64,000 nt of DNA from a virus (taxonomy: Duplodnaviria; Heunggongvirae; Uroviricota; Caudoviricetes): the IMG/VR virus record IMGVR_UViG_2711768056_000005. The stretch is one strand, 5' to 3'. The stretch's first letter is position 1. The number at the start of each line of letters is the position of its first letter. Of the stretch, positions 7,990-39,411 are shown one piece after another. The position numbers and the translations under genes were made by a program. The notes below the pieces were generated by a model. The model was given only the letters and a program-made list of their open reading frames with translations, made no database searches and was not told where the DNA came from.

Positions 7990-7992
7990 AGA

Positions 7993-8019
7993 AATCCCGC
8001 CAATTGGCGGGATTTTTAC
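7993..8019. terminator. Bidirectional rho-independent terminator between darA operon and convergent gene
   Basis: 10-bp stem AAATCCCGCC/GGCGGGATTT with AATT loop followed by T-run. Confidence 0.6.
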
Positions 8020-8020
8020 C

Positions 8021-9115
8021 TCACGAGAAACTCTTTTCTGATGTCAGCCAACAGTGCTCGTGCATATCTCTTGGTGGTTTTTCGACAAATGCCTCTTCAG
8101 CCACATCCTGCCAGGGGATTTGTTTAGCCCATTCAGCTATAGCGTTATGGTTTGCCGAGAATAACGGTATTGTATAGGCCTTCAGCCAGTCTAATGTGCT
8201 GGAGTTGTGTTTTTGTGCGTGATGTTTCGCATGGTGTTTGGCGATCACGAGCGTAGGCACTACCCATTTACTACCGTCAGTCATTGTGAAGTGCATATTA
8301 CGGGGCACAGATGATTTTTCCATCAACTCGCGGACACCGGGAAATTCCCCTTTGATCAATCGGCGATATTTATCGCTATTGCACCCACCAAACTCTTTGG
8401 CTTTGTATTCAAGATATGCTTCAGAAACGAGAGGTGAATCCTCTGTGCTGAGAGTTATAGCCGTGAAAATACCAGCAGGATTGTTCTCACTATGGGCCAA
8501 CCGGTGATGCGAATCATAAAAATACCCTTTCTCTCGTTCCGATGGTTTCGACAGCAACAGCAGGCGCGAATCATAACCGGTCAAATTGCCTGTTATCACA
8601 GCATGAGCGCGGTCGCTGATTTCTGCCGCGTTAATAACGATGAAAAGATCATGCGGCCCAGTAAAACCAGCCAGAGATTCTTCGTTATTCAGACAATAGT
8701 TTAAATACACACATCCCCATGCTTCACTGATATGTACCAACCCTTTTTCAGGGTGCAGTTTGAAATGATTGCCAAGAAAAGGGTGTTTCTTGATAACCTG
8801 CGCCCAATAACAGCACATATAGTCAATTATATTGTTTCGACTATCGTTAATAGCAGGAGAAACAACCACTGTACGGGAACACGAATACAGTATTGTTTGC
8901 AGGATGCTAATCACTGCCACAATAGAGGTTTCCCCAATACCATGTGGTGTGGTGGCAGTGACTTTGGCTCCGGTGTTCTTTATCGCGTTAATAATTTTTG
9001 CCTGATGAGGTGTTAACTCAATATCAAGCAACTCTTTTGCTGCCAGTTCCCAATTGTCTTTATACCGTTCTATCAGTGCTAACCAGGCAGATTCATTCTG
9101 TATACGATTAATCAC
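8021..9115 (-). CDS. Paralog of terminase large subunit PacB ATPase domain (no nuclease domain)
   Basis: 364 aa; colinear similarity to PacB 28675-30159 in this window (TPHGIGETS vs SGHGTGKSD; YFYDSHHRLA vs [10 protein letters not shown]; FTAITLSTEDSPLV vs [14 protein letters not shown]). Confidence 0.7.
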   Translation of the reverse strand: MINRIQNESAWLALIERYKDNWELAAKELLDIELTPHQAKIINAIKNTGAKVTATTPHGIGETSIVAVISILQTILYSCSRTVVVSPAINDSRNNIIDYMCCYWAQVIKKHPFLGNHFKLHPEKGLVHISEAWGCVYLNYCLNNEESLAGFTGPHDLFIVINAAEISDRAHAVITGNLTGYDSRLLLLSKPSEREKGYFYDSHHRLAHSENNPAGIFTAITLSTEDSPLVSEAYLEYKAKEFGGCNSDKYRRLIKGEFPGVRELMEKSSVPRNMHFTMTDGSKWVVPTLVIAKHHAKHHAQKHNSSTLDWLKAYTIPLFSANHNAIAEWAKQIPWQDVAEEAFVEKPPRDMHEHCWLTSEKSFS

Positions 9116-10070
9116 TTTCCACCTCTTCCGTAGTGTTTTCTTGCAGTTCTGTTAATGCAGCACGACACAGGGTCCGGGCATTGGCTATAGCCACACTTTT
9201 GACTTCATCCGTCATCGTGCAGGTAATGTACTGATCGAGTTCTTCAGCACGGATGATGCTTTTGCCAATCAGAAACTGTATTTGCCAGAGCAGATCGGCA
9301 TCCATAATCAGAATTTCTGCCGGGCCTTCAGGGCCAGCCGGGAAGGAAACATAAGACTGTTTGCCCAGGCCGATAACTCGACAACTTGCTTCAAGAATTG
9401 CGCGCTTGAGGTCTGACTTTGTAACGGAAACAGGTTGGTTATCACCAGTGATTATGCCGTTGACATGGAAGTGGAAGGGCATGTAGCTTGAAATTCGCTC
9501 TACTTTCCATACGCCAGCAAGCGATCCTTCATGCAGCACAATGGGGGTAACCGCGAGTTTCATCTCACTATATAACTGCTGGCAGATAGCTGGATTGCTG
9601 AATACATCCAAAGGTTCACACTCAAACAGCGGCGCAATCTGCATGAGGTCCATCATCGTCATACCAGTGGTACGAGCAGTAATGAATCTGCGCATTCCAG
9701 TATCCATTGTGCGCCAGATAGCTACACCATGCTTTTTGCTCACTTCTTCAGTAAAGCCAAGGTGGCACATGATGGTTTTTTCGATAGCCAGATCAGAGAT
9801 AGAAACCTTTTCGCCTGGCACTCCATCATTATTGATGGTCACTTCGACACTCTGGCCATTACGTAGGCGGTATTGAATGGTTTTAGTATTTTGTGCTGTC
9901 ATAGTCTTTTCTCTGCTTAAAAACTGATGTAGTGCGCCTTCAGGTTGGTTAGGAATGTTTTCCCACCAGCGAAAGCAATATCTCGGGGTGTTCTTTTCGT
10001 GAAAAGCGCGTGCCATTGCCAACTTTGGCGTTTGTTTGCGAGTTCGTGCTTTTGTCGGCGTCTGGACCAC
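9108..10070 (-). CDS. Hypothetical protein upstream of PacB paralog
   Basis: 320-aa ORF; true start may be internal Met near 9905 (MTAQNTK...); no recognisable motif. Confidence 0.5.
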   Translation of the reverse strand: MVQTPTKARTRKQTPKLAMARAFHEKNTPRYCFRWWENIPNQPEGALHQFLSREKTMTAQNTKTIQYRLRNGQSVEVTINNDGVPGEKVSISDLAIEKTIMCHLGFTEEVSKKHGVAIWRTMDTGMRRFITARTTGMTMMDLMQIAPLFECEPLDVFSNPAICQQLYSEMKLAVTPIVLHEGSLAGVWKVERISSYMPFHFHVNGIITGDNQPVSVTKSDLKRAILEASCRVIGLGKQSYVSFPAGPEGPAEILIMDADLLWQIQFLIGKSIIRAEELDQYITCTMTDEVKSVAIANARTLCRAALTELQENTTEEVESD

Positions 10071-14403: not shown

Positions 14404-17400
14404 ATGAACAAGCTATCTATGGGGGTGTTTCGCTGTTCAAGTGTCAGCGAAATATTGAAATACATTAGTGCAATAACATCTCACCGAGCGCCGATTAAAT
14501 ACGGCGTGGAAAAGGTGGAAGGCAAAAGCTATGACCGACTGCGCCGGGAGGCGAATCAGAAGGCGATAGATTTGCTTAATTCGCTGGTGGACGGCGCGAC
14601 ACTGACAGATGAACAGCGCCAGATCCTGGCTGGGTACACCGGTGAAGGCGGCATTGGCGGGTCCGTCTCCGAATATTACACACCAAAGCCGATCGCTGAA
14701 GGTGTCTGGGAGATCATGAAGCTCTACGGCGCGGACGTAGGTAACACTCTGGAACCATCGGCGGGAACCGGCGTTTTTAATGAGACAAAACCGGTTGGTA
14801 CGGTGATGACCGCGACTGAGATCAGCAGTATTTCCGGTCGTATAAACCAGTTGTTACACCCGGAAGACAGCGTACAGATTTCCCCGTTCGAACAGCTGGC
14901 TATAAGCACGCCTAACGATTCATTCGACCATGTTGTGGGTAACGTTCCGTTCGGCGGTCGTGATAACACACGCAACATCGATAAGCCTTACGCAGAAGAA
15001 ACGGACATGGGTTCTTACTTCATGCTCCGCATGCTGGACAAGATAAAGCCAGGCGGATTCATGTGCGTGATTGTGCCGCCGTCCATTGTTTCAGGTTCAA
15101 ACATGAAGCGGTTACGCCTGCGCTTATCCCGTAAAGCTGAATTTCTTGGCGCTCACCGCTTGCCTACTGGTACTTTTGACGCAAACGGGACCAGTACAGT
15201 CGTTGATGTGGTGCTGATGCGCAAACATCCGGCAGAGATGGCTGAGAAAATCCCCCTGGTGGATGAAAGCACTCTTGAATCGGCAAATGTGCTTTGGCCA
15301 ACGTTTATTTCTGGCAAGTGGTTTGAAAAGGATGGCCGCCGGTTTGTTCATGGCACCCAGGAAAAGGGCTTCCAGGGGCGTATTGAGGTTCGTGCCGACG
15401 GTCAGATTGATAACCAGGCTCTTAAAGCGAAGCTGATTCATCGTTTCGAAAGCCGTATCGACTGGTCTTTGCTCGATATGGCTGAACCGTCACCGACCGC
15501 AGACGTTGTTGGTGAAGGGGAAATGCGCCTGATTAATGGCGTATGGCAAAAATATGCTGGTGGTCGCTGGATTGAAGCTGATGCTGGGAAGGAACTTAAG
15601 ATCGATGCTGCCAGTTATGGCGCGGATAGCTGGGAGGCTCTTCAGCGTAACCTGACTACAACAGAAGGCCGTCTCGGCATGACATTTACCCAGATGGCAA
15701 ATGTCCGCGATAAGTACACCACATCAATCAGCGACGATATGGTGCAGCTGGTGGACTGGATTAACAGCCAGCCTGAAAAATACCGTGAACGCTTGTATCG
15801 CGGGGCGATGATTGGCCGGATGTTAATTGAATATCAGGACATGAAGGCCGCCGGGCATAGTGCTGAACAAATCGAACAGCAGCGCCTTTCTCTGGTATCT
15901 CGTTTGCAGGCAGAGATTGACCGTTTTGGTAACCCCGGTCGCGGTCCGATAGCGAAATTATCGGGGAGCGGTGCGCGCGCCTGGTTTGCTTTCCGTGGTG
16001 CAATTAAGCTGGATGGCACTATTTCTGACGAGCTGACAGGAAAACTGGTTACGCATGATTCCAGCGCCAGTTATGACTCCACCAGCTATCAGGACACCCT
16101 GCGTTATCTCTACAGTGATCTCACTCGCGATCCAATCCAGCTCGATGATTTCCGCCTTGCGTTTACCGGCGAACTGCCAGCCAGTGATGACGAGTTGCTT
16201 AATTTATTGGCCAGCACCCCTGGCATTGCGGTTTCACCGTATGGCGGGATTGTTCCGTTCGCCCGCGCCACCAGCGGCGACATTAACGAGATAGTGGCTC
16301 CAAAACAGGAATTCCTTGCCACACTCCCCGACGGTCCAGTAAAGAACAACGTCCTTAATCAGCTGGCAGCGATCGAAGAGAAGCGCATCAAGACGCCAGC
16401 AGAGAATATCCGCTTTAAGCTCAATAGCCGTTGGTTCGACCGCTCCGTCATTCTGGAGTTTTTGCAGGAAAACGGCTATCCGGATCTGCGCTATGTGCAG
16501 TCAGTGCAGCTGGAAGGCGACGAAATGGTTTCTGACACCTATCACGGTGGTGATGGTCTGTTCGTCGGGCACCGATACGGTGTCGTCCAGCGCAAGGATA
16601 AAGAAACAGGCGAGATCCGCTACGAGTGGGACCGTAAATCAGGTGAAAACGCGACCGGGTTCCCGGCACAGCTGGAAAAGTATCTCAATGGTGCGCGTAT
16701 CGGTGGCAAAGATAGCGCGACGGCGAACGGCTACCGCGAGCAGATGGCACTGCTTGAGGACCAGTTCAATAAGTGGATCAAGACGCACGATCGCTACGAT
16801 GAGCTGGTTGCCAAATACAACGATGTGTTCAATAGCAATATCCCGTTTGAACACTCTGGCGATCCGCTTGGGTTGAAGGGATTAAGCGGTAAGCGCCAGC
16901 CATTTGATTACCAGAATAGCGAGGTGCGCCGACTGTCCGAAGATGGGCGCGGCATCCTGGGCTTCGGCACCGGGCTGGGTAAAACCACGACCGCGCTGGC
17001 GCTTGAGGCGTTCAACTATGAGAACGGTCGCTCCACCCGTACTGCTTATGTAGTGCCTAAATCAGTGCTGGAAAACTGGTATTACGAAGCAAAAGAGTTC
17101 CTGAGTGAAGAGGCATTCAGTAACTACCTGTTCGTCGGTCTTGATGTGCTGATGGATGGCGATCAGATTCGCCAGGTGCCGGTGCTCGATGAGAACGGTA
17201 AACCTGTTCTTGGTACTGATGGCACTCCAGTTATGCGCGATGCTCTTAAGCTGGCAGATGAAGCCACTATCACGGCGCGGATGAACGCGATCCCGCACTC
17301 AAACTACCGTGCAGTCGTGTTTACCAAAGAACAATACGCCCGCATTCCGCTACGTGATGACACCGTAGATGAGCATGCACAAGACATGCTTTATGACTTC

Positions 17401-20400
17401 GTTGCCGCCGGGCGCGTAGCCAGCGCAATGGACTCCGACTCCCACCGCAAAGAGGCCGCGCGTCGCCGGGTATTGTCGGAGTATTCAGATACCGGCACCG
17501 AAAAAGCAGAGAAGTATCCGTACTTTGAGGATATGGGCTTCGATAGTGTGATCGCCGACGAAGGTCACAACTACCGCAATAGCTATAAAAATGGTCGCGA
17601 AGCGTCACAGCTGGCCTATCTGCCCACCAGCGCGGTGGCGCAATCGGCGCGAGATATGGCAATCAAAAACGCGTACCTGATGAAAAAGAATGGCGGGCGC
17701 GGGCCGGTTCTCCTGACTGCAACGCCAGTCGTTAACACCCCGATCGATGCATACAACATGCTTTCTCATGTGCTGCCGAAGGAATACTGGCAGAAGATGG
17801 GGATCTACGGTCCTGATGACTTCGTTAAATTCTTCGGCAAGACCAGGCTGGAAACGGTACAGAAAATCAGCGGTGAAGTTGAAGAAAAAATGGCGCTGGT
17901 GGGATTTGAAAACCTTGATGCGCTGCGCGGTATATTCCATCGCTGGGTAACGCTTAAAACGGCGGAAGACGTTAAGGATACCGTGGAGATCCCGGAGCTG
18001 GACGAACACCAGCAGGATGCACCACTTACTGAAGAACAACTGGCGGCGTATGAAGAATTGCGTCAGCAGGCGGAAGCGGCAGCCAAAGCCAACAATGGCG
18101 TAACGACCTCGGTCAATGAAGACGGCGTGATTGAGCACGAGAAAGCCCGTCCGATCTTCTCAATAATCAGGGATATGGACCGCGTATGTACTGACATGGA
18201 CCTGTACTATCGCCGGATCACCTATCGTTTCCTGCCGGAGTACGCCGATGCGGTGCAGCAGCTGGCGGACAGTTTGCCTAAACAAGCCACCAGCGAAGAC
18301 GACGACAGTGATGATTCAATCACGCAGCAATCGCAATATTCCCTGATAGATAAGGGAGAGTTTATTCAGTTGCAGGTTCCGGAAGCGTTCGAGCAGGAAG
18401 TGAATAAGCGCCTGGCCAGGTTTGGCATTGACGAACAGACCGTAACTCACCCCGTTACGCCCAAATACGCGAAGCTGATCGCCACGCTGAAGGAGTTTTT
18501 CCCGGAAGGTAAGCAAATCATCTTCACCGATGAAAAAACGCAGCACCAGAAGCTCAAGCGCATTATCTGCAATGCTCTTAACCTTGAACCTTCAAAGGTG
18601 GGGATCCTGAATGCTCAGACGGTTGCCGAGGCAGGTAAAACCGGTAAGAAACTGAAAGCGGTTAAACCGCCGAAAGAGTTACCGGATGAACCAACAGATG
18701 AACAGATAGCGAAATACAACGAGCAAATGGCTCTGTATGACGCCTATATCGCGCAGCAAAATGAAATGTCGTTGGGCGGTCTGGAAAAGATTGCAGCCGA
18801 CTTCCAGGAGGGCCGGACTCCGATCATCATCTGCAACAAAAAGGCAGAGGTGGGTATCAACCTGCATCGAGGAACGACTGACATCCATCATCTGACGTTG
18901 CCATGGACACCAGCCAGTATCGCACAGCGTAACGGTCGCGGTGCCCGAGTTGGCTCCAACCGTGCAAGCGTTCGCGTTCATTACTACTGCGGCAAGGGTT
19001 CTTTCGATGAATACCGACTGAAGACGCTGAAGCGTAAAGCAGGCTGGATCTCCGATATCCTCCGTTCAGATAAGTCAGAAATGGAGAACGCCGACGCCAA
19101 CGATATGATCGAAATGCAGATGTATACCGCTAAGGATGATGGCGAACGTCTGGCAATGATGCAGGTTCAAATGGATAAGGCGAAAGCCGCGCAACGCGCT
19201 CGCCAGAAAGAACAGGCTACTATCGACCTTCAGAACTACATCAAGGCACAGCACGCAGCTGGTGAGGATGTGGAGGTGCTTACCGCTGAATTAGAGCGAA
19301 GCAAAGCGGAACTTGAAAAGACCACCGCCGACGTCGCCAAATTCAAACAGGCGGTAATGGCCAAAGCAGCTGATAACGCAGACTGGAAAGCCCGCTGGGG
19401 TAGCGTCCATCACACAGACCGTACGTTGTTAGCACAGTATCGCGCGTCGTTGAAAAGCGCCATTCAGCGCAAGGCTAATATCTCTCAAGCCATCTCCCGC
19501 TATGAGAAATTATTGAACCGTGCTCAGAAGGCCGCGACGGATATCAAACGCCTGCGCCCGCTGGTGGAGGATGCAATAAATAAAGGCATTCTGGATGTTG
19601 ATCCTGACCTGGTTAACCATGCGAGTGAGTTCCTTGTTATCGGCGATCGCTCATGGCGTGTAGGCCAATACTACGATTGTGCCGGTGATATCGTTCGCAT
19701 TAAGTCGCTGGACTTCGACAGCCAGCGCGCAGACGTGGAGATTATCTTTACCTTCAAAGGTACCAAATCGGGTAACTGGGATGTGAAGACGCTGGATAAA
19801 CAGGTTGATGTAACTCCCGATGAAGATGCTGTTATGCAGAAAATCAGTGGTGGCGTCTCCATTGCCGGGATTAACGACATCATTTCCTGTGACGATTTCT
19901 ACCGTTTCCAGCAGCGCGGCATGATCAAAATCACTGACTCATACGGCGTTCAGACTACAGAGTCAGGCTATAGCATTGATTTTGTTGGTACCTATACGGA
20001 CCCACTGAAGCATGCGGTTTACCCGGATCGCCGTGACGGCGCGCTGAAGTCGTCAATTGCAAAATGGGTGCTTGGTATGATGTCGGAAGGGAATAACCGC
20101 CAGATCCGTTCGGCAGAAACATTCCTGGTTGAACTGTTTGGCTCCAATTATGGCGATGTAATCGCGTCATACGGAGATACGCTATCCCCTGAAGCAATTC
20201 AGGAGAAAATAGCGGATGCGATCGCCAGAATGCCGGAAAAAACAAGCCAGGGGGCTACTCGTAACGGGGATTCTGAACTTGAAGTCACCAATGCCATTTT
20301 CGGTACCAATGAGTTCCGGGCGTCAGATTATGAGATCACCACAGCACAGTTTGGCACCATTGGCATTTACAGCAATAAAGACGAGATCAAGCAGGCAATG

Positions 20401-21171
20401 GACGCAGCAAGTGCGCGCATTGCAGCAGAACGGAAAGCCAATCTGAATCATGCAGTCGCCGCGCTGACTCAATCGTGGGTAACAGCAATCAGGGAGGCCG
20501 CCACCACAGGAAAAATCACACCGGCAATTGCGGATGTCGTAAACGACGGCTCTAAATTTATGGATGCCTATCAAATGGATGCGGTGCAGTTGCCATCAGC
20601 CTATGGCCAACTCAGCTATCGCATGACCTACAACCTGGTATCAATGTTTTCCGACCTTGCCATCCTTGGGCTGGTGGACCTTAACGAGGTTACGCCGGAA
20701 TTGCTCAGCATGCGCAAGAACCATGTGGAGATATTGCACAGAATTAACACGGTACTTTCCGGGCGCACCGATGAAGAGAAACAGGCAGACGCTGATCGGA
20801 TAAACCTGGCCCTAGGCAACATCACGGAGGAAGAAATTGCCGCCAGAAACGAGAAACAAGAAGAGTTATCATCAATACAGGGTGATGCCACCAGCATAGC
20901 TCAGTCTCTTGGTCTGAATTATCGCGTATCCACCGCCGACCTGAAGATGATGTACGCACCAAAATTCGCCGCTGGCGAGGCATTTGGGCTTCAGGAGGCG
21001 TCCGGCATGAAAGGCATTCTTTTCCGTGCTAAAGACGCAATCAAGGAAAAATTCGGCGCTCGCTGGCTGCCAGCGAAGGCGAAGAACAGCGATTTCCCGG
21101 GTAACTGGTGGATTATCGAGACAAAACACAACGTGGCGGACGTTCTGGCCGTCATCCAACAATACGCATAA
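14404..21171 (+). CDS. darB: DarB antirestriction protein (N-terminal methyltransferase-like plus DExH helicase domains)
   Basis: 2255 aa (identical length to P1 DarB); helicase motif II VIADEGHNYRN; Walker A-like GFGTGLGKTT. Confidence 0.9.
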   Translation: MNKLSMGVFRCSSVSEILKYISAITSHRAPIKYGVEKVEGKSYDRLRREANQKAIDLLNSLVDGATLTDEQRQILAGYTGEGGIGGSVSEYYTPKPIAEGVWEIMKLYGADVGNTLEPSAGTGVFNETKPVGTVMTATEISSISGRINQLLHPEDSVQISPFEQLAISTPNDSFDHVVGNVPFGGRDNTRNIDKPYAEETDMGSYFMLRMLDKIKPGGFMCVIVPPSIVSGSNMKRLRLRLSRKAEFLGAHRLPTGTFDANGTSTVVDVVLMRKHPAEMAEKIPLVDESTLESANVLWPTFISGKWFEKDGRRFVHGTQEKGFQGRIEVRADGQIDNQALKAKLIHRFESRIDWSLLDMAEPSPTADVVGEGEMRLINGVWQKYAGGRWIEADAGKELKIDAASYGADSWEALQRNLTTTEGRLGMTFTQMANVRDKYTTSISDDMVQLVDWINSQPEKYRERLYRGAMIGRMLIEYQDMKAAGHSAEQIEQQRLSLVSRLQAEIDRFGNPGRGPIAKLSGSGARAWFAFRGAIKLDGTISDELTGKLVTHDSSASYDSTSYQDTLRYLYSDLTRDPIQLDDFRLAFTGELPASDDELLNLLASTPGIAVSPYGGIVPFARATSGDINEIVAPKQEFLATLPDGPVKNNVLNQLAAIEEKRIKTPAENIRFKLNSRWFDRSVILEFLQENGYPDLRYVQSVQLEGDEMVSDTYHGGDGLFVGHRYGVVQRKDKETGEIRYEWDRKSGENATGFPAQLEKYLNGARIGGKDSATANGYREQMALLEDQFNKWIKTHDRYDELVAKYNDVFNSNIPFEHSGDPLGLKGLSGKRQPFDYQNSEVRRLSEDGRGILGFGTGLGKTTTALALEAFNYENGRSTRTAYVVPKSVLENWYYEAKEFLSEEAFSNYLFVGLDVLMDGDQIRQVPVLDENGKPVLGTDGTPVMRDALKLADEATITARMNAIPHSNYRAVVFTKEQYARIPLRDDTVDEHAQDMLYDFVAAGRVASAMDSDSHRKEAARRRVLSEYSDTGTEKAEKYPYFEDMGFDSVIADEGHNYRNSYKNGREASQLAYLPTSAVAQSARDMAIKNAYLMKKNGGRGPVLLTATPVVNTPIDAYNMLSHVLPKEYWQKMGIYGPDDFVKFFGKTRLETVQKISGEVEEKMALVGFENLDALRGIFHRWVTLKTAEDVKDTVEIPELDEHQQDAPLTEEQLAAYEELRQQAEAAAKANNGVTTSVNEDGVIEHEKARPIFSIIRDMDRVCTDMDLYYRRITYRFLPEYADAVQQLADSLPKQATSEDDDSDDSITQQSQYSLIDKGEFIQLQVPEAFEQEVNKRLARFGIDEQTVTHPVTPKYAKLIATLKEFFPEGKQIIFTDEKTQHQKLKRIICNALNLEPSKVGILNAQTVAEAGKTGKKLKAVKPPKELPDEPTDEQIAKYNEQMALYDAYIAQQNEMSLGGLEKIAADFQEGRTPIIICNKKAEVGINLHRGTTDIHHLTLPWTPASIAQRNGRGARVGSNRASVRVHYYCGKGSFDEYRLKTLKRKAGWISDILRSDKSEMENADANDMIEMQMYTAKDDGERLAMMQVQMDKAKAAQRARQKEQATIDLQNYIKAQHAAGEDVEVLTAELERSKAELEKTTADVAKFKQAVMAKAADNADWKARWGSVHHTDRTLLAQYRASLKSAIQRKANISQAISRYEKLLNRAQKAATDIKRLRPLVEDAINKGILDVDPDLVNHASEFLVIGDRSWRVGQYYDCAGDIVRIKSLDFDSQRADVEIIFTFKGTKSGNWDVKTLDKQVDVTPDEDAVMQKISGGVSIAGINDIISCDDFYRFQQRGMIKITDSYGVQTTESGYSIDFVGTYTDPLKHAVYPDRRDGALKSSIAKWVLGMMSEGNNRQIRSAETFLVELFGSNYGDVIASYGDTLSPEAIQEKIADAIARMPEKTSQGATRNGDSELEVTNAIFGTNEFRASDYEITTAQFGTIGIYSNKDEIKQAMDAASARIAAERKANLNHAVAALTQSWVTAIREAATTGKITPAIADVVNDGSKFMDAYQMDAVQLPSAYGQLSYRMTYNLVSMFSDLAILGLVDLNEVTPELLSMRKNHVEILHRINTVLSGRTDEEKQADADRINLALGNITEEEIAARNEKQEELSSIQGDATSIAQSLGLNYRVSTADLKMMYAPKFAAGEAFGLQEASGMKGILFRAKDAIKEKFGARWLPAKAKNSDFPGNWWIIETKHNVADVLAVIQQYA

Positions 21172-21204: not shown

Positions 21205-21645
21205 ATGGCCACACTATCTGATACAATAAAACCGAATAAAACATATCTTGAGGCGGTACTCCGTACAGCGTTGTTAGGAAAGACAGAAGACGAATACGTT
21301 GATTTCTTCCTGTCAGGGCTACGCGGGCGATTACTGAAAAATCCCCGCCTGTACCGCAGCTATGGCCCATACTGGCCGGAAATTAAAAAATTATTACTGG
21401 AGCGCGGTTATGGTAATTTCGGTCGTCTCGTTGACCGTGACGTTCGCAAAATTTACCGTTATGACCGCCCGGCGCTAACACTCATAGCCGCGACGCTCTA
21501 CAGCCAGGAGCGTTTTGATAATGGTCAGATATACTCAGCCTGGCATTTACTGCCAGTGCCTGAAGAAGTTGACGACCAGGACTATGAGTTTGAGTCTTAC
21601 GATTTGGAAGTTGAAGCCTTGGCACAGGCTGGAGAGAAAACTTGA
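21205..21645 (+). CDS. ulx: Ulx-like protein
   Basis: 146 aa, immediately downstream of darB. Confidence 0.5.
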   Translation: MATLSDTIKPNKTYLEAVLRTALLGKTEDEYVDFFLSGLRGRLLKNPRLYRSYGPYWPEIKKLLLERGYGNFGRLVDRDVRKIYRYDRPALTLIAATLYSQERFDNGQIYSAWHLLPVPEEVDDQDYEFESYDLEVEALAQAGEKT

Positions 21646-21890
21646 AAAAGCGATACTACACAGTAAAGCATGGGACGCTACGAGCATTACAAGAGTTTGC
21701 TGACAAGCATAACGTTGAGGTGCGCAGGGAAGGGGGAAGTAAAGCTCTGCGCATGTACCGTCCGGATGGGAAATGGCGTACGGTCGTCGATTTCAAAACT
21801 AACAGCGTTCCCCAGGGCGTCCGCGACCGGGCATTCGAAGAATGGGAGCAGATCATCATAGATAACGCATTGCTCCTGAATGCTGATTAA
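21642..21890 (+). CDS. lxc: Lxc-like small protein (C1 co-repressor candidate)
   Basis: 82 aa, translationally coupled to ulx; size matches P1 Lxc. Confidence 0.5.
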   Translation: MKKRYYTVKHGTLRALQEFADKHNVEVRREGGSKALRMYRPDGKWRTVVDFKTNSVPQGVRDRAFEEWEQIIIDNALLLNAD

Positions 21891-21929
21891 ACTTTCCGCC
21901 CTTTTGCCCGGTCTATCGCCGGGCATCTT

Positions 21930-22718
21930 TCAGAGATAATTACCTTTACCCGTCAATTCCCCTTGTGGTACTTGTTTTTGCGCCAGTGTTTGGGTTCCGC
22001 GAATTATGTTAATCAGAGGGCTTAGTAACGATGGTTCCTGGCGTGCCTCAACTTCTCCAGCCATTGCCCTGATGTAGTCGCCGCTGGCAACGTTGTTGTA
22101 TTCCGTCGCAAAGCAACATAGTAACGTCAGAACATGCTCTGTCGTTATTTCGCTCCAGTTGATGTTGAAAAATTCATCGCCTTTTTTATCGTGTTCGGAA
22201 TCGAAGATGCTTTGGTGGAGAATGTATTTGCCGGATTCCTTGCGCGGTAACTTGATTGCTTTCTGGCGTTCCAGCTCCTTATAAATCTGCATTGCCTCAA
22301 TTAGTACCGGCCTGCCGTTCATGAAGGGATCGCGCAACCTTACACGCTGGCCAACTCGACCAGTAATAAAGCTGTTTTCCTCTTCCACCAGCACGATAAA
22401 ACCCTTTTCCTCTTTTTCTCGCAATTCGCGCAGCAGCTGGAGTTCCATATCGCGGCGGCGTTCAGGGTAGCTGGTCCGCTCAGCCATTATCAGCTCGTTA
22501 TTGATCCATGCAGCAGTCATTGACGCCGGTTTGCCGACGCTCATCGAAACAACGCATATTTTCTTATCCATAGCGCCCCCTACAAAAAAGAAAAGCCACC
22601 AGCGGCGGCTTAGCAATACAACTGAAGGTAGCGCCCGGTACTCAGACTGTGCCGTCCATGGAATATTTGAAAAGGGATCCATCCGTACCGGGCGTGTGAT
22701 GATTCTGACTGAAGTCAC
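21930..22718 (-). CDS. mat: Mat-like protein
   Basis: ORF 262 aa; likely start at internal MDKKICVV; lies between ref and lxc. Confidence 0.45.
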   Translation of the reverse strand: MTSVRIITRPVRMDPFSNIPWTAQSEYRALPSVVLLSRRWWLFFFVGGAMDKKICVVSMSVGKPASMTAAWINNELIMAERTSYPERRRDMELQLLRELREKEEKGFIVLVEEENSFITGRVGQRVRLRDPFMNGRPVLIEAMQIYKELERQKAIKLPRKESGKYILHQSIFDSEHDKKGDEFFNINWSEITTEHVLTLLCCFATEYNNVASGDYIRAMAGEVEARQEPSLLSPLINIIRGTQTLAQKQVPQGELTGKGNYL

Positions 22719-22753
22719 TTGTCAGTTGTCAATCATTTATCATTAAAAATAAT

Positions 22754-22770
22754 ATATTTATTAGTGCATT
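22754..22770 (-). promoter_or_regulatory. C1-operator-like element upstream of mat (14/17)
   Basis: Reverse complement AATGCACTAATAAATAT. Confidence 0.4.
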
Positions 22771-23321
22771 ATGTTTGCCATCTCATAGGCGTCAGCCAGT
22801 AACTCCATCTCTGACTTGTTCAGCAGGGTGAATTCTTTCTTGCCTCCAACCACACCATCGGCATGAACAGGGACCAGCCAGGGGTATTTTGCTCTTACTT
22901 CAGCCGGTGCTGCATGCTGGTGGTGCCATCTACAAAGTGGCAATTGCTTTTTATGACAACCCGGCGCGGTACGACCGGCGATATGGTGCAGAGACACCTC
23001 ATTAGATATTACTCCATGCATATAGCAGGCAATGCAGGGGAGAGCGCCAAGAGCATTGGCGATGCGCCGTTCCTCCGCCGTTGGTGTTCTCCCCTTCAAG
23101 CCACGAGATTTTATTTTTACAGCGCTTTTCCGCGTTTTGCTGGCTGGTGGGCGCTCTTTCTGTTTAGCGATACGGCGGTCGATAGTATCTCGCATTTTCT
23201 GATATTGAGATTCTCGCCAGACCGGATCAGCCAACTTCTCCCGTTGCCGAGCGATCGCTCGTTCTCTGGCTGCCTTCTGCCACTTGCGGCACTGTTCAAT
23301 TTTTTGTTCGATTGTTTTCAT
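22761..23321 (-). CDS. ref: Ref recombination enhancement function (HNH endonuclease)
   Basis: 186 aa; basic N-terminus, Cys/His HNH region (CYMHGV...HH...CRWHHQH). Confidence 0.85.
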   Translation of the reverse strand: MKTIEQKIEQCRKWQKAARERAIARQREKLADPVWRESQYQKMRDTIDRRIAKQKERPPASKTRKSAVKIKSRGLKGRTPTAEERRIANALGALPCIACYMHGVISNEVSLHHIAGRTAPGCHKKQLPLCRWHHQHAAPAEVRAKYPWLVPVHADGVVGGKKEFTLLNKSEMELLADAYEMANIMH

Positions 23322-23419
23322 ATGGTCAAAAAAAAGGCGGCCTAATGGCCGCCTATGATGTCAAGGAGTTAAGTAATGGCACGTCTTCGTAGTTGACAAA
23401 AACTGCGGCTCAATTATAG

Positions 23420-23568: not shown

Positions 23569-23880
23569 TTATTTCATCATGGAAGCTGTTAATGCTTTAG
23601 ACCTTGCTGAACTGATTGAGAGGGCTTTGTCAACGTGCCCCAAAAATTCGCCAAACTCAGACATCACTTTGGCAAAACCGCGCCGTGCTTCTTCCTCGGT
23701 GGCATTCATCACGAAATGTTCAGCACTACGCATACTTTTGACAGGGAACGCAACGGATATTGAGTCAATATCAGGCATTCTATCGCTCAACTTTACAGTG
23801 ACAATGACGGCTGGCGACTGAATATTAGTGCTTACAGACAGCACTACATATTTTCCGTCGATGTTGAAATCCTTTCTCAT
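23569..23880 (-). CDS. cra: Cra-like protein
   Basis: 103 aa, immediately downstream of cre. Confidence 0.5.
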   Translation of the reverse strand: MRKDFNIDGKYVVLSVSTNIQSPAVIVTVKLSDRMPDIDSISVAFPVKSMRSAEHFVMNATEEEARRGFAKVMSEFGEFLGHVDKALSISSARSKALTASMMK

Positions 23881-23930: not shown

Positions 23931-24962
23931 CTAATCACCATCTTCCAGCAGGCGCACCATTGCCCCCGTTTCACTATCCAGATTACGGATATAGTTCATG
24001 ACAATATTTACGTTGGTCCAGCCACCAGCTTGCATGATCTCCGGTATTGAAACTCCGGCGCGGGCCATATCTCGCGCAGCTCCGACACGGGCACTGTGTC
24101 CAGACCAAGCCAGGTACCTCTGGCCAGAGTCATCCTTAGCCCCGTAAATCAATCGGTGAGTTGCTTCAAAAATCCCTTCCAGGGCGCGAGTTGATAGCTG
24201 GCTGGTGGATGATGGCGAGGCAACACCATTTTTTCTGACCCGGCAAAACAAGTAGTTATTCGGATCATCAGCCACACCAGAGACAGAAATCCATCGCTCG
24301 ACCAGTTTAGTTACCCCCAGGCTAAGTGCCTTCTCTACACCTGCGGTGCTAACCAGCGTTTTCGTTCTGCCAATATGGATTAACATTCTCCCACCGTCAG
24401 TACGTGAGATATCTTTAACCCTGATCCTGGCAATTTCGGCTATACGTAACAGGGTGTTATAAGCAATCCCCAGAAATGCCAGATTACGTATATCCTGGCA
24501 GCGATCGCTATTTTCCATGAGTGAACGAACCTGGTCGAAATCAGTGCGTTCGAACGCTAGTGCCTGTTTTGCACGTTCACCGGCATCAACGTTTTCTTTT
24601 CGGATCCGTCGCATGACCAGTGAAACAGCATTGCTGTCACTTGGTCGTGGCAGACCGGACCGACGATGAAGCATATTTAGCTGGCCCAAATGTTGCTGGA
24701 TAGTTTTCACTGCCAGACCGCGCGCCTGAAGATATAGAAGATAATCGCGAACATCTTCAGGTTCTGCGGGAAACCACTTCCGGTTATTCAACTTGCACCA
24801 TGCCGCCCACGACCGGCAAACGGACAGAAGCATTTTCCAGGTATGCTCAGAAAACGCCTGGCGATCCCTGAACATGTCCATCAGGTTCTTGCGAACCTCA
24901 TCACTCGTTGCATCGACCGGTAATGCAGGCAAATTTTGGTGTACGGTCAGTAAATTGGACAT
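23931..24962 (-). CDS. cre: Cre tyrosine recombinase
   Basis: 343 aa; MSNLLTVHQNLPALPVDATSDEVRKNLMDMFRDRQAFSEHTWKMLLSVCRSWAAWCKLNNRKWFPAEPEDV...; near-identical to P1 Cre (differs around VASPSSTSQ). Confidence 0.98.
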   Translation of the reverse strand: MSNLLTVHQNLPALPVDATSDEVRKNLMDMFRDRQAFSEHTWKMLLSVCRSWAAWCKLNNRKWFPAEPEDVRDYLLYLQARGLAVKTIQQHLGQLNMLHRRSGLPRPSDSNAVSLVMRRIRKENVDAGERAKQALAFERTDFDQVRSLMENSDRCQDIRNLAFLGIAYNTLLRIAEIARIRVKDISRTDGGRMLIHIGRTKTLVSTAGVEKALSLGVTKLVERWISVSGVADDPNNYLFCRVRKNGVASPSSTSQLSTRALEGIFEATHRLIYGAKDDSGQRYLAWSGHSARVGAARDMARAGVSIPEIMQAGGWTNVNIVMNYIRNLDSETGAMVRLLEDGD

Positions 24963-24969: not shown

Positions 24970-25191
24970 TCAGATAATGGTTTTAAGTAAAGTGTACAGG
25001 ATCGGCTCTGCCTTTACCTGTTTATGGTTCTCGTCATAGAAACGCCAGCGACCGCGCGTGCGTTCTATTTTCTCTTCACCGCGCGATAATGACAGTTGAC
25101 AACTATCACGATCAAACCCTTTTGCCCGCCAGTAACCACGGTTTTTCTCAAGCTCAATATGAGTGGACACTTTAGCAGCTGAATATCCCAT
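24970..25191 (-). CDS. Hypothetical 73-aa ORF between loxP and cre
   Basis: ATG preceded by GAGGTG RBS; ends 7 bp before cre start; could alternatively be noncoding cre promoter region. Confidence 0.3.
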   Translation of the reverse strand: MGYSAAKVSTHIELEKNRGYWRAKGFDRDSCQLSLSRGEEKIERTRGRWRFYDENHKQVKAEPILYTLLKTII

Positions 25192-26115: not shown

Positions 26116-26967
26116 ATGATAAATTATGTCTACGGCGAACAACTGTACCAGGAGTTCGTCAGCTTCAGGGATCTCTTTCTAAAAAAAGCCGTTGCACGCG
26201 CCCAACACGTTGATACAGCCAGCGACGGTCGTCCTGTACGCCCGGTTGTCGTTCTACCGTTCAAAGAAACTGACAGCATTCAGGCTGAAATTGATAAATG
26301 GACTTTAATGGCGCGGGAACTGGAACAGTACCCAGACCTCAATATCCCAAAGACTATTTTATATCCAGTGCCTAACATCCTTCGCGGTGTGCGCAAGGTT
26401 ACAACTTATCAGACAGAAGCTGTGAACAGCGTCAACATGACCGCTGGCCGCATTATTCATCTGATTGATAAGGACATTCGCATCCAAAAAAGCGCGGGGA
26501 TCAATGAGCACAGTGCGAAATACATAGAGAACCTGGAAGCAACAAAAGAGCTAATGAGGCAGTACCCGGAGGATGAAAAATTCCGTATGCGCGTACACGG
26601 CTTTAGCGAAACAATGCTGCGCGTCCACTACATTTCCAGTAGCCCTAACTACAATGATGGTAAATCAGTTAGTTACCATGTGCCACTGTGTGGCGTGTTT
26701 ATCTGCGATGAAACTCTCCGTGATGGAATTATCATCAACGGTGAATTCGAAAAAGCAAAATTTAGCCTTTATGACTCCATAGAACCGATCATCTGCGACC
26801 GCTGGCCGCAAGCAAAAATATATCGCCTGGCAGATATTGAAAATGTAAAAAAACAAATTGCCATCACTCGCGAAGAGAAAAAGGTTAAGTCAGCCGCATC
26901 AGTTACGCGCAGCCGTAAAACCAAGAAGGGGCAGCCAGTAAACGACAACCCCGAAAGCGCGCAATAA
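26116..26967 (+). CDS. c1: C1 master repressor of lysogeny
   Basis: 283 aa (P1 C1 length); AGGAGG RBS; near loxP/cre/coi. Confidence 0.93.
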   Translation: MINYVYGEQLYQEFVSFRDLFLKKAVARAQHVDTASDGRPVRPVVVLPFKETDSIQAEIDKWTLMARELEQYPDLNIPKTILYPVPNILRGVRKVTTYQTEAVNSVNMTAGRIIHLIDKDIRIQKSAGINEHSAKYIENLEATKELMRQYPEDEKFRMRVHGFSETMLRVHYISSSPNYNDGKSVSYHVPLCGVFICDETLRDGIIINGEFEKAKFSLYDSIEPIICDRWPQAKIYRLADIENVKKQIAITREEKKVKSAASVTRSRKTKKGQPVNDNPESAQ

Positions 26968-26968
26968 A

Positions 26969-26995
26969 TTATGCCCGGCATCAACCGGGCATTCT
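26969..26995. terminator. Hairpin between convergent c1 and ant-like gene (likely bidirectional terminator)
   Basis: ATGCCCGG-CATCAA-CCGGGCAT; T-rich flank on minus strand. Confidence 0.45.
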
Positions 26996-26999
26996 TCCA

Positions 27000-28118
27000 T
27001 TATTCAGCTGCCACCGGTTTTAACAAGCCAGCATCGAGCAGTTTACGCGTCAACCACTGCTGGCCTTTACCCGTTAATTGAGGCGTCAACCGTATCTGGT
27101 AGCCATCTTCATCATCCAGCACCACTTCTTTCACCGTGAAATACCCCGCGTTGATGTACTGCTGGAACGGCACATTTTTACGTCCACCGGACGCTATCAG
27201 GATGCCGTTCTCCCGTAACCAGACAAACAGCGCGTTTTGCTTAAGTCCAACAACCTTTGCAAAATTCCCAATCAGGATCCCTTTAGCTACTGATACCCGG
27301 TCGGCAAAATCGACTTTAGGAGCGGCGGCCACCAGCTGCTGATTTAGCTGGTGGGCTTTCTGTTCCAGAAGTTGCTTTTGTTCAGCCAGTTCGGCAGCCA
27401 GGCGTAGGGCTTCAGGAAGCGTCTGGGGGATTGCGATCGGTTGCTGTTCTTTTTGTCGGAAGTAGCTGTCTTCCAGTTTTTCAAAGAATGCCCATGCCTG
27501 ATCGGTTTCGAGCATTTTAGCGTGGCGGGCTGCGCCGCGTTCTGTCCAGAGGGTGAGTGAGCGAACATTGCGAGCAATTTTTACAGAGTAGTTTAAAGCT
27601 ACTCTGTGCTTCAACTCGCGCAATGATTCTCCTTCAACTTTGAAAAAGTGCTTCCCTTCAACAAAGCGTACTTTGTTCTCATGATGATTTTGGCGAATAC
27701 GGATTGTTTCTGTCCCATACCCTCTAGCAAGAGTCTCGGTTGTCACTACACGCACTCCCTGCCATTCCAGAACGGGAATTTCATCAGACTGATTCTGAAC
27801 AACCACCAGCTCCGATTCCTGAACTGAAGGTGCATGAATTTTTTCTGATTTAACGTTAGTTGCTTTCATTCTGTGTGCCTCCTTGCGTGCTTCGGCTGCG
27901 ACGGTTGCGTAATTCAGATGACCCTGTTCGAGCAGGTATTCGCGGATATCAGACAACAGGATACGGTGAACCGCGTTCTTGTCCTTTCTCCGGTAAAGTT
28001 GTTTGGTGATCATGAAGTAGTTGGCAATAACGCCTGGTATATCCCTGGTACTGATACAGGCAGTGTGCTGTTCAATTGCCTCGATCATCTCTTCACGGGT
28101 GACTAATGACGTTCTCAT
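27000..28118 (-). CDS. Antirepressor-like protein (ORF6N-type N-terminal domain plus KilAC C-terminal domain)
   Basis: 372 aa; central VLEWQGVRVVTTETLARGYGTETIRIRQNHHENKVRFVEGKHFF resembles ORF6N; C-terminal ...NALFVWLRENGILIASGGRKNVPFQQYINAGYF resembles KilAC; RBS AGGAGGGA. Confidence 0.7.
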   Translation of the reverse strand: MRTSLVTREEMIEAIEQHTACISTRDIPGVIANYFMITKQLYRRKDKNAVHRILLSDIREYLLEQGHLNYATVAAEARKEAHRMKATNVKSEKIHAPSVQESELVVVQNQSDEIPVLEWQGVRVVTTETLARGYGTETIRIRQNHHENKVRFVEGKHFFKVEGESLRELKHRVALNYSVKIARNVRSLTLWTERGAARHAKMLETDQAWAFFEKLEDSYFRQKEQQPIAIPQTLPEALRLAAELAEQKQLLEQKAHQLNQQLVAAAPKVDFADRVSVAKGILIGNFAKVVGLKQNALFVWLRENGILIASGGRKNVPFQQYINAGYFTVKEVVLDDEDGYQIRLTPQLTGKGQQWLTRKLLDAGLLKPVAAE

Positions 28119-28336
28119 AGTCCCTCCTGAGCAGAAGCGTTAACAGGGAGGCACCAGTAACTGAGAGAATTGCGTGAATCAGTGGAAAAACGGGCAGAGA
28201 AAATACATGGGGCGTCAGGAAGCTGAGAGCGGGCCTCATCTTCTGTTGGTGCAATAACGAAGTGATAGTGACGTTTTTGGCAGGAGTAAAAGCGCCAGAT
28301 AAATTCAGGATGAGTTGGGGTAGGGATAGTAGCCAT
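28115..28336 (-). CDS. Icd-like small protein (host cell-division inhibitor family candidate)
   Basis: 73 aa from ATG after AGGAGG RBS; motif YHFVIAPTEDEARSQL...IFSARFS resembles Icd/Ash-like proteins; translationally coupled to downstream antirepressor. Confidence 0.45.
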   Translation of the reverse strand: MATIPTPTHPEFIWRFYSCQKRHYHFVIAPTEDEARSQLPDAPCIFSARFSTDSRNSLSYWCLPVNASAQEGL

Positions 28337-28501
28337 ATTGGCAGCCTCCTTAGACGTTGGTATGTAACCACCGCAGAAGAGACCAATCTTGCTGGCGGTG
28401 GACTGTACGGAGTTGGCCTTACTGGCGTCCAAGGTAACCAGCCTACCCGAAGGTAGCCCCATACAGCCCACCATTGTAGAGGTGTGCGTGTACGCCGATA
28501 C

Positions 28502-28630
28502 AAAAAAAGACGCGAGCGGCGTCTGTATCGCCTTAGACTTAAGCGGGAGGCCAATCCCGGCACCCGTTTTAATGAGGTGCCTGATAAGCATAAACCGAAA
28601 ATGCCACAAGGCGCAAGAGGTCAGGTTCAA
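28502..28630 (-). ncRNA. Candidate C1-controlled small RNA (c4-like antisense RNA?) ending at intrinsic terminator
   Basis: Minus-strand hairpins GGCACC..GGTGCC and CGGGA..TCCCG followed by AGACGCCGCTCGCGTC + T7 terminator (plus 28501-28524); segment GGCCUCC complementary to AGGAGGCU RBS of the icd-like ORF. Confidence 0.3.
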
Positions 28631-28654
28631 TGTAACATCGGTAGCTAAAAAACA

Positions 28655-28671
28655 CAATTTATTAGAGCAAA
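28655..28671 (-). promoter_or_regulatory. C1 operator (15/17) upstream of the small-RNA/icd-like/ant-like operon
   Basis: Reverse complement TTTGCTCTAATAAATTG. Confidence 0.55.
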
Positions 28672-28674
28672 TAT

Positions 28675-30159
28675 TCATTCATTAAGCCATGCCAGAGCTT
28701 CATCAACCTGCGCTTCGTCTTCGACGCTAAGCACTTCATCCTGGGGAACATAATCCGCCAGCATAGCGAAACAATATGTATCCCAATGGTCTGGTGAGTG
28801 CAGGTTGAGTTTTTTCTTCATATCCTCCTTACTCATCACCTTCCATTGACCTGCGGAGTTAATCCCTACAGGGATTTTCGACGCTTCCTCAATAGTTTCA
28901 TTACCCTTATCCAGTCTCATACGACCAGATTTTACGGCCTCTGCGGCTTGAACATTGGCATAAGCACGTTTATCAAAGTACAGGCTCTTATCTTCACGGC
29001 TATGCATCTTTTTACCCCAGCGTATACGCTGTACGGTAATACCATAATACTCGTACATCAGATCCGCCGTTGCTTTACCCAGGCCATCGCCGTCTATCGC
29101 TATGGTGATATTGGGGAATCGCTCAGGATTACATTCTGCGAAAATTTTGGCGGCAAGCTGCGTTTCTGTAACGTCTGTGTATTCCAGCATTCGATAGTTG
29201 ATTACACGGCGTTTATTTCGCTGGCCGGACACCATCATGATATTGATAACGGACTTATCCCGTCCCGTACCACCAGCAACGTCCACACATGCAAGCCAGC
29301 CCCATCCTTTGGCAATCTTGACTTTCCGCCGCGTTGCACGTTCAACCTCATCACGTCCAAGAAGGAAGCCATCCTGTGATTTAGGGAATAGGCCGCGTAC
29401 CTTAATCATGTACATAGGGTTATCACGCCCGCCGTACTCCGCCAGCTTCATTTTGATAAATGCTGGCGTTACCAACGGTGATTCCTCACTGTTAAGCGTG
29501 ATCGCCGTATAAACGCCATCAGGGTTACCAGGACGCTTGGCCAGTTTATGGTGTGTATCGTAGAAATAGCCGCTTGGGCGTGTAGGCTGTGACAGCAATA
29601 AGATGCGGTTATCCTGTCCGGTAAGAGCACCGGTGATGATACCGAAAGCTCTATCACTGACACCGGAGGCTTCATCGATAATATACAGAAGATGATCTGC
29701 GTGTTCACCGGCGAGAGCTTCTTCACTTCCCAGACGAAAGCCCTTCGGTACTACAGTCCATACACCTTTACCAGTAATCTCATAGAAAGCGGTTTCTGTC
29801 AGAACAAAATAATCAGCAAGCCATGGGAAACGGCTGGTGGCAGTAGCCCAGTTTATCTTGATGTACTTGAATATACCGGTCATTACCTGCTGAATTTTGT
29901 TCGCAACGATAATGGCACAGGCACCTGGATACATGATTATGAACAACATGATCATGATAGAAGTCATGTCTGATTTCCCGGTACCGTGACCAGACGAAAC
30001 AGATGTCTTGCTACCCTGTTCCTGCACAGACTCAATAATCAGATCCTGCTGCCAGGTAGGTGTTTTGCCGAACAAAACATCAGCGGCAGCAATCCAGTCA
30101 TAACGATATAGCGCCACCAGCTCGCGCCAACGTGGATCCGTTACGCAACTTCTGGCCAT
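28675..30159 (-). CDS. pacB: Terminase large subunit PacB
   Basis: 494 aa; Walker A-like SGHGTGKSD, nuclease-domain acidic motifs ([22 protein letters not shown]). Confidence 0.93.
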
Positions 30160-34471: not shown

Positions 34472-35056
34472 ATGCCTAATCGCATTCCTCTCGATCCTGT
34501 ATTGCCCAAAAATTTTGACTGCACTCCTAACGAGAAACGCTCTAAAGCTCAGCTGGACGCCTGGTGGGATCATCCCTATGGGGTTACAGAACATGACGGG
34601 AAAATTGTTGTTTATTGTCTGAATGGTGGCGCGTGGGACCGTCCATCCGTGCTTGGTTTGGCAAATAACTATGATGAAGCCTGTGAACTTGCCGAAAGAC
34701 AGCAGGCTAGATGGGTGAAAACACGTTCTGAACCGACATTCATGTTTTCAAAAGAACCGCCATTTATACTGGCGAGGATGCCGCAGCGACCGGATCATCA
34801 ACAAGAAATTGTTGCTGAATTTTCCTCAAGGGATGAGATGAATCTCTTCTCATTAAAGCAGGAAGAAAGGGATCGCGTCGAAGTGTCTCCAACTCTCGAC
34901 CACAACCGGATGAACCTGGCCCAACTCGCCTGGTACAGCAAAGAATTAGAGATGTCTATTGCCCGGCTTGAAAACGAAAAAGCCGCTATCCAAGTCCAGC
35001 ACGAAGTAGTTCTGAACCGGATTAGAGAAATGCAAAACGATAACAGGGGATTTTGA
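34472..35056 (+). CDS. Hypothetical protein, divergent from humD (possibly LexA-regulated)
   Basis: 194 aa, RBS-like AAGGAAT upstream, coiled-coil C-terminus. Confidence 0.5.
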   Translation: MPNRIPLDPVLPKNFDCTPNEKRSKAQLDAWWDHPYGVTEHDGKIVVYCLNGGAWDRPSVLGLANNYDEACELAERQQARWVKTRSEPTFMFSKEPPFILARMPQRPDHQQEIVAEFSSRDEMNLFSLKQEERDRVEVSPTLDHNRMNLAQLAWYSKELEMSIARLENEKAAIQVQHEVVLNRIREMQNDNRGF

Positions 35057-35419
35057 ATGGCTAAAATCGAGTACCATCGCGATCGCGGTAATTACCTGGA
35101 AATATACGATCATGAATCTCTTAACGATATCAACGATGCGTTATATGAATACTGTGAAAAAATGAGCATCACAGATGCACCTGATGCATTTGTCGAGCTA
35201 CCGGTATATCTCCGCGACATCTATGCAATACGGACGCCGCCCGTATCGGTAATTCACATTGGCTATGTCCGCCTGTCCATCGAAGAAGATGAAGATCGTT
35301 ATATCGTGCGCCACTATACATTGGACAGAAAAGAGCTTCCCAATGAATGGAACATGAGTAATTTCTACAACGGTGAATATGGCTTAAAACCCGCTAAGAA
35401 TGGCGCGGGCATTGCGTAA
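35057..35419 (+). CDS. Hypothetical protein
   Basis: 120 aa, coupled to upstream ORF. Confidence 0.5.
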   Translation: MAKIEYHRDRGNYLEIYDHESLNDINDALYEYCEKMSITDAPDAFVELPVYLRDIYAIRTPPVSVIHIGYVRLSIEEDEDRYIVRHYTLDRKELPNEWNMSNFYNGEYGLKPAKNGAGIA

Positions 35420-35430
35420 TAGCCTAACAA

Positions 35431-35670
35431 CTATTCTGTTTTCTGATATGCTGGATCGTTCCCTTTTGGCAACTGGAGGCTTAACTGCCGGTAGTGCCGT
35501 AACCGTTCCATGAAATAGGTGCGCAGGTTCTCTGGTTGCTCGCGGGCTACCTGTTCAGCTATGACAGGTATGTTCAATCGCTCTTTGTACGCCACACCGC
35601 TGGCAGCCAGATCAACGTTAACCTTATCCTGTTCTTCCTGACTTTTAGCTGCAATATTCCAGTCGCTCAT
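35431..35670 (-). CDS. hot: Hot, homolog of DNA polymerase III theta subunit
   Basis: 79 aa; [37 protein letters not shown] closely resembles E. coli HolE. Confidence 0.85.
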
Positions 35671-35672
35671 AT

Positions 35673-35945
35673 TTAAGGCTCACATTTCCAGATGGTATTC
35701 TGAACACCCGAACCGGGCGCTAGATGAGGGTTAGCGTTCGCGCTATGCTGATATACTGCTTTAGACTTCCCATATTGCTGACAGGCTTTATCTGCGGTTT
35801 TTTGCAGGCTATCCAGGCCATACCAACCATCTGACTGTATGCTTACCTTTTCACCGTCGTTGTATTGCACCATTGCACACCCAGATATAGCCAGTATCGT
35901 GCCGACAATAACGCTTTCCCATAAAACTCTATGCAACATAGACAA
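35673..35945 (-). CDS. Small lipoprotein candidate
   Basis: 90 aa; signal peptide with lipobox ISGC. Confidence 0.45.
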
Positions 35946-35984
35946 AAATCCCCTCTGTGAATTGAGGGGATTTTAGCATGGTGA

Positions 35985-36976: not shown

Positions 36977-36982
36977 ATAAAT

Positions 36983-38720: not shown

Positions 38721-38730
38721 AAATTATGCC

Positions 38731-39410: not shown

Positions 39411-39411
39411 A

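Follow-up and report, generated by a model that had tools for sequence, protein, structure and literature searches.

An empty mat–lxc junction in a P1-like phage-plasmid: a minority variant of a documented variable cargo site

In phage P1 the type III restriction–modification (R–M) genes res and mod lie between mat and lxc. The DNA analysed here, a 64,000-nucleotide stretch of virus record IMGVR_UViG_2711768056_000005 that we refer to as the window, appeared in a preliminary description to have mat and lxc converging across only about 40 bp, with neither R–M genes nor an insertion sequence between them. This arrangement raises the question of whether the cargo is truly missing from this locus and, if so, whether it was lost recently, has moved elsewhere in the element, or was never part of this version of the site.

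Backbone and gene assignments

Aligned to P1 (NC_005856) by blastn, the window was colinear in reverse orientation, with 93–99.8% nucleotide identity over most of its length; the exception within the P1-matching backbone was an ant-like stretch of about 1.3 kb with only 70–81% identity. The P1 span covered runs from 32242 (the cin side) to 63755, in the order cin side, dar, isaA, lyz, pro, prt, darB, ulx, lxc, mat, ref, c8, cre, lox, c1, pac, phd/doc, the pmg genes, ban and dmt, and colinearity of the backbone is interrupted only at known variable regions. Using tblastn, we recovered 23 P1 proteins at full length. By gene content and order, the element is a P1-like (Punavirus) phage-plasmid, of which the window represents about two thirds of the replicon, with around 30 kb lying outside. 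When 25 kb of the window was searched by megablast against PLSDB and 5,426 complete Escherichia coli genomes, the best match had 93% coverage and 97.3% identity, and an exact-protein look-up with UpfB returned no match, and a look-up with Cin returned ten P1-like loci, none of them closer to the window than about 97% identity.

The identification of the two genes that bound the junction proved sound. The lxc gene (21642–21890, + strand, 82 amino acids) encodes a modulator of the C1 repressor and matches P1 Lxc at all 82 of 82 residues, and mat (21930–22682, − strand, 250 amino acids) encodes a protein 96.4% identical to P1 Mat over 250 of 250 residues. The mat start used here is the ATG equivalent to the P1 start, within an open reading frame that itself extends to a GTG at 22718. 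Upstream, on the lxc side, lie ulx (21205–21645, + strand, 146 amino acids, 98.6% identical to P1 Ulx over its full length) and darB (14404–21171, + strand), which encodes an antirestriction methyltransferase/helicase of 2,255 amino acids with 98.7% identity to P1 DarB over 2,255 of 2,255 residues. The mat-side flank consists of ref (22761–23321, − strand, 186 amino acids, 98.9%), c8 (23569–23880, 95.1%), cre (23931–24962, − strand, 343 amino acids, 99.4%) and cra (24970–25191, 97.3%), with c8 and cra on either side of cre and identities again given relative to the P1 proteins. All six of these flanking genes are full length and colinear with P1. DarA, Hdf, DdrA and DdrB are also full length by tblastn and about 98% identical to their P1 counterparts, making the dar gene set complete.

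Contents of the mat–lxc junction

The lxc stop codon (TAA, 21888–21890) and that of mat (21930–21932, read as TCA on the + strand) face each other across a convergent intergenic spacer of 39 bp (21891–21929). No open reading frame lies between the two stop codons, and the spacer is all that the cargo site contains here, standing in place of P1 3438–9742. In the P1 reference the same locus comprises mat (2716–3468), res (3544–6456), mod split by an IS5 copy (7652–8846), and lxc (9750–9998). P7 has res–mod in the same place and without an insertion sequence.

To the search for P1 Res and P1 Mod (the latter reconstructed with IS5 removed, 653 amino acids), the whole 64-kb window returned no tblastn match at E ≤ 1e-3 for either protein. 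Neither of the two genes of an EcoP1I-like type III system, res and mod, is therefore found at the junction or relocated elsewhere within the window, and the only methyltransferases present are those of the backbone genes dmt and darB. The absence of R–M is thus established for the 64 kb seen, not for the whole replicon. These results uphold the reported lack of type III R–M genes and insertion sequences at the junction, and require one correction to the comparison that had been drawn with P1. That comparison rightly placed res and mod between mat and lxc, and also placed an IS1 copy there; IS1 in NC_005856 maps to 22626–23393, between isaA and isaB, so that placement was mistaken. The insertion sequence at the P1 locus is the IS5 copy in mod, and it is a laboratory allele, as the reference P1 is named as a mod749::IS5 c1.100 mutant (PMC6906374).

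The spacer contains a hairpin, TGCCCGGT-CTATC-GCCGGGCA (21905–21925), whose core arms are the GCCCGG (21906–21911) and CCGGGC (21919–21924) of the preliminary description, separated by the loop TCTATCG and extendable to eight pairs, six of them G–C, over 21905–21925. Its fold on the + strand has a predicted energy of −16 kcal/mol and a z-score of −2.7 relative to dinucleotide shuffles. The hairpin was not called by a consensus terminator scan because its U-tract is weak: the + strand tail after the stem, AUCUUUCA, has four U in eight nucleotides, which is under the scan threshold. On the − strand, that of the mat transcript, the tail is AAAAGGGC; here the stem is followed by AAAAGGG with no U-tract, and the hairpin is therefore not a canonical mat terminator. 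From its position, the stability of its stem, and the conservation of that stem across alleles with variable loops, we infer that the hairpin is probably a terminator of the ulx–lxc transcript. A scan with Rfam gathering thresholds detected no RNA gene at the mat–lxc junction. A 9-nt stretch within lxc, GACCGGGCA (21825–21833), could pair without mismatch with the 5′ hairpin arm (21905–21913), which would permit an alternative pairing; this complementarity is probably due to chance.

Two further ways of accounting for the junction were considered and set aside. A compositional anomaly was ruled out, with GC content staying at 0.46–0.52 across the region. A scar left by excision of an insertion sequence or transposon was rejected, as the only repeats present are 8–10 nt long, which is at chance level, and there are neither insertion sequence ends nor a target-site duplication. 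Homology of the spacer to lxc-adjacent backbone sequence in other alleles also counts against a scar.

Cargo alleles and the origin of the empty state

We aligned the junction of the window with those of RCS47, P1, P7 and plasmids carrying SIR2, GNAT or RelA/SpoT cargo at the same locus. In all compared alleles divergence starts directly past the lxc stop, and the codon position at which mat terminates is unchanged, indicating that the variable segment is exactly the convergent intergenic region, bounded by the lxc stop on the left and the mat stop on the right. The last 60–90 nt of mat, though homologous among alleles, show far greater divergence than the remainder of the gene and differ by cargo type; in the window this allelic 3′ end occupies 21930–22010 (− strand) and co-varies with cargo state, with homology to P1 reaching the level of the flanks only from about 21961–21975. 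The SIR2, GNAT and RelA/SpoT cargos lie downstream of mat and are co-directional with it, and the mod–res genes of P1 and P7 lie downstream of lxc and are co-directional with lxc.

Directly downstream of lxc, a hairpin is present in the window, in RCS47 and in all three of the single-gene cargo alleles. The GCCCGG/CCGGGC stem is common to the window and RCS47 (loop TCT[A/G]TCG), the GNAT allele (TTTGCA) and the RelA/SpoT allele (AATTA), in the last of which T and A runs border the stem, an arrangement like that of a bidirectional terminator; the hairpin of the SIR2 allele differs. The window spacer also aligns with sequence that follows lxc in other alleles. It matches the 42 nt after lxc in P1 at 26 of 42 positions without gaps, a score reached by 0 of 2,000 shuffles, as was the score against the RelA/SpoT allele; the match to the GNAT allele was weaker (35 of 2,000 shuffles), and no match was found to the SIR2 allele. 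The spacer is thus a lxc-proximal piece of the backbone or its terminator, with cargo, where there is any, lying between it and the mat stop codon. P1 and P7, which encode EcoP1I and EcoP7I, share with the window the flanking genes, both stop-codon boundaries and a homologous first 42 nt or so after lxc, but carry about 5.1 kb of mod–res (in reference P1 with IS5 in mod), and the window has a different mat 3′ allele.

The preliminary description had treated the locus as a known variable cargo site of P1-like phage-plasmids, and the aligned plasmids support this. Other sampled P1-like plasmids carry genes for SIR2, CapRel-type RelA/SpoT (as in SJ46), GNAT or YaaC proteins or insertion sequence-borne genes at the site, with further examples having two paired genes of the YaaC family, small unassigned open reading frames, or rearrangements associated with IS1 or IS5. 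Salmonella phage SJ46 has its RelA/SpoT protein between lxc and mat; this protein is the fused toxin–antitoxin CapRelSJ46, experimentally shown to provide anti-phage defence (PMC9712102). Scanned with PADLOC, the RelA/SpoT cargo of pLR-28_1 matched the candidate model PDC-S33 (8e-86) and the SIR2 cargo matched PDC-S25 and ThsA-type models, with no PADLOC match for the GNAT cargo. SJ46 and the related RelA/SpoT, SIR2, GNAT and YaaC plasmids have the same site and boundaries as the window, and the GNAT and RelA/SpoT alleles retain its lxc-adjacent GCCCGG/CCGGGC hairpin. Unlike the window, which has none, they carry one or two genes (0.85–1.6 kb) co-directional with mat, several of them with matches to PADLOC defence candidates.

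The same empty junction is present in other elements. In Escherichia phage RCS47 (FO818745/NC_042128) the junction is 98.3% identical over 241 bp and 97.4% identical and colinear over a 2.5-kb query, with the same darB–ulx–lxc and mat–ref–c8–cre–cra order and the same 39-bp spacer and hairpin; the spacer differs by a single base in the hairpin loop (A to G), and RCS47, at 115 kb, is elsewhere a different mosaic from the window. Among 698 PLSDB plasmids matching the 241-bp junction query, the junction was uninterrupted in 31. A 120-nt query comprising the spacer and the mat 3′ end recovered the same 31 plasmids, plus one split at the record origin, at 95.8–100% identity. These plasmids were carried by E. 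coli, E. fergusonii and Salmonella of pig, poultry, cattle, dog, human, water and salad origin, and one of them is from E. coli O111:H- 11128. An identical junction in a sequenced phage and in over 30 complete plasmids, each assembled independently, together with the lack of a compositional break, leaves a negligible chance that the junction is an assembly artefact from which cargo was collapsed out, an explanation that has in its favour the general possibility alone.

These counts also place the P1 arrangement in perspective. Of roughly 700 P1-like plasmids in PLSDB, about 4.5% have the empty junction and 56, or about 8%, have a full-length P1-type mat/res junction. Both the empty state and the canonical P1 state are therefore minority alleles, and absence of res–mod is the norm, contrary to the view of res–mod as the resident cargo. 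Published comparisons agree in the passages that deal with this site: res–mod forms ‘highly variable region 1’ among 54 P1-like plasmids (Zhou et al. 2022, PMC9603915) and ‘RD-1’, absent from pJIE250-3, pSvP1 and pTZ20_1P (Venturini et al. 2019, PMC6906374). Both names refer to the site that forms the junction in the window. The three plasmids of the latter study have other open reading frames in place of res–mod, whereas the window is empty, and the passages on the site in these two papers give no count of the strictly empty state or its haplotype. The empty mat–lxc junction is thus real but already known, as a minority variant of a documented variable cargo site.

How the empty state arose can be addressed through the sequence that travels with it. 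Site turnover is evidently frequent, given the many cargos and the presence of IS1 and IS5 in some plasmids, and the homology of the spacer to lxc-proximal sequence of the P1, GNAT and RelA/SpoT alleles makes it conceivable that res–mod or another cargo was recently and precisely deleted, leaving that piece behind as a derived loss. The haplotype of the junction speaks against this. In PLSDB the 120-nt spacer and mat 3′ haplotype, at identities of at least 95.8%, is restricted to empty-site plasmids; the nearest cargo-linked haplotype, that of the SIR2 type, reaches 85.7% identity across the mat portion, and P1 agrees, as noted, at only 26 of 42 spacer positions. The flanking genes, by contrast, are 97–99% identical among the compared elements. 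An allele found with the empty state only, between flanks this similar, is therefore unlikely to be a recent deletion of any sampled cargo allele. The junction has no direct repeats or insertion sequence ends, and the empty allele is spread over three host taxa and many sources. We consider recent deletion unlikely, and the divergence of the haplotype argues for the empty state being long-standing.

Taken as a whole, the observations are best explained, with a probability of about 0.9, by a known variable site of a P1-like phage-plasmid that is here represented by its empty allele. The site, set between two convergent backbone genes, lxc and mat, holds only the 39-bp spacer with its hairpin, which most likely ends the ulx–lxc transcript, and the cargo of other elements is placed between that hairpin and the mat stop codon. 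Cargo has apparently been swapped by homologous recombination in the conserved flanking genes, as suggested by the last 60–90 nt of mat and the spacer travelling with cargo as diverged haplotypes; this part of the model draws on the haplotype structure in six alleles. A more elaborate version, in which the empty allele is an ancestral ‘landing pad’ and the hairpin, besides acting as a terminator, a structure-specific target or breakpoint for inserting and swapping defence cassettes, seems to us very improbable compared with plain recombination in the flanks.

What the empty allele implies for its bearer is limited. A lysogen would gain no EcoP1I-type restriction, no modification and no R–M-based addiction from this locus, judging from the absence of the genes, and consequences of the missing res–mod for host range, as proposed in the preliminary description, are conjectural. 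Its further suggestion of a consequence for the Dar antirestriction system lacks direct grounds: Dar counters type I R–M systems (PMC12810830), and the dar set is intact whatever the cargo state, so any link is weak. The finding confirms a P1-like phage-plasmid with its best-known defence-cargo site unoccupied and matters little alone, as the empty state is already in databases in RCS47, the E. coli O111:H- 11128 plasmid and others. It does correct the reference picture, in that the P1 type III R–M system is itself a minority cargo and the insertion sequence at the locus is the laboratory IS5 allele, and it yields as by-products rough frequencies of the states over about 700 P1-like plasmids and an empty state that appears to have its own old haplotype. 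For the engineering of P1-type vectors, an empty site with sharp limits between convergent stop codons could also offer a neutral place for insertions.

Other variable regions of the element

Alternatively, the replicon might have an R–M or other defence system at a different location, either moved from the junction or newly gained. About 30 kb lies beyond the window, other P1-like plasmids have a type I R–M system in the pmg region (for example, pSvP1; PMC6906374), and the window encodes a lone PAPS-reductase protein (41089–41967) weakly similar to SspD and DndC. Besides the junction, the window has four stretches that do not match P1 (7988–9106, 26967–28676, 35040–42004 and 56262–57349), and Pfam and PADLOC scans of their open reading frames detected no R–M enzyme and no complete defence system. 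The variable pmg-hot region of the window, corresponding to the type I site of pSvP1, is likewise free of R–M genes, and Res and Mod had no match across the 64 kb. Such a system elsewhere is accordingly quite improbable.

The four stretches have contents of their own. At the variable isaB/IS1 site, IS1 and isaB are replaced by an open reading frame of 364 amino acids (8021–9115, − strand) that is 34.6% identical to residues 11–289 of PacB, the large terminase subunit, and is a paralogue of the N-terminal part of PacB; it had no Pfam or PADLOC match, and a gene of 364 amino acids occupies this position in other P1-like contigs (L011, L015 and L018). In further P1-like contigs the isaA/isaB site adjacent to ssb holds differing cargo (L009 and L010, 1081–1758; L013, 447–1802; L012, L014, L016 and L017, about 730–1840; L021, 2448–3803), examples being a Tad2-like protein of an anti-Thoeris family, a porin gene, and an HD-domain protein for which one plasmid gives the annotation anti-phage dGTPase. 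This variety of cargo marks the isaA/isaB site as a second spot for defence and counter-defence genes.

The window contains an immI-type module (26967–28676) between c1 and pacB, a position at which P1 has no insert. In this module an isrK-like small RNA (28503–28580, − strand, 60.8 bits in Rfam) and a C4 antisense RNA (28391–28478, − strand, 75.9 bits in Rfam) are followed by an ant-like gene for a KilAC/ORF6N antirepressor (27000–28118, − strand). An ant insertion between pacB and c1 is described for pTZ20_1P and RCS47 in PMC6906374, and the canonical P1 immI region falls outside the window. The adjoining PacB (28675–30159, − strand) is just 88.3% identical to P1 PacB, with its neighbours PacA and C1 at 96% and 98.9%; judged by these identities, pacB forms a patch of local mosaicism beside the inserted ant module.

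The largest of the four stretches (35040–42004) has about 6.3 kb in place of the P1 upfM–pmgV/pmgU segment, known as variable region 8. Along with several unassigned open reading frames, it encodes a DUF551 protein (38022–38720), an Ead/Ea22-like protein (39773–40696) and the PAPS-reductase-domain protein mentioned above, whose weak similarities also include BrxP. The tciA–C variable site (56262–57349) contains a gene resembling those for SPFH/Band 7 lipoproteins (56280–57107, − strand) and a small membrane open reading frame (57088–57324, − strand), and is adjoined by a tRNA gene with anticodon CAT (56177–56252) that corresponds to P1 trnI.
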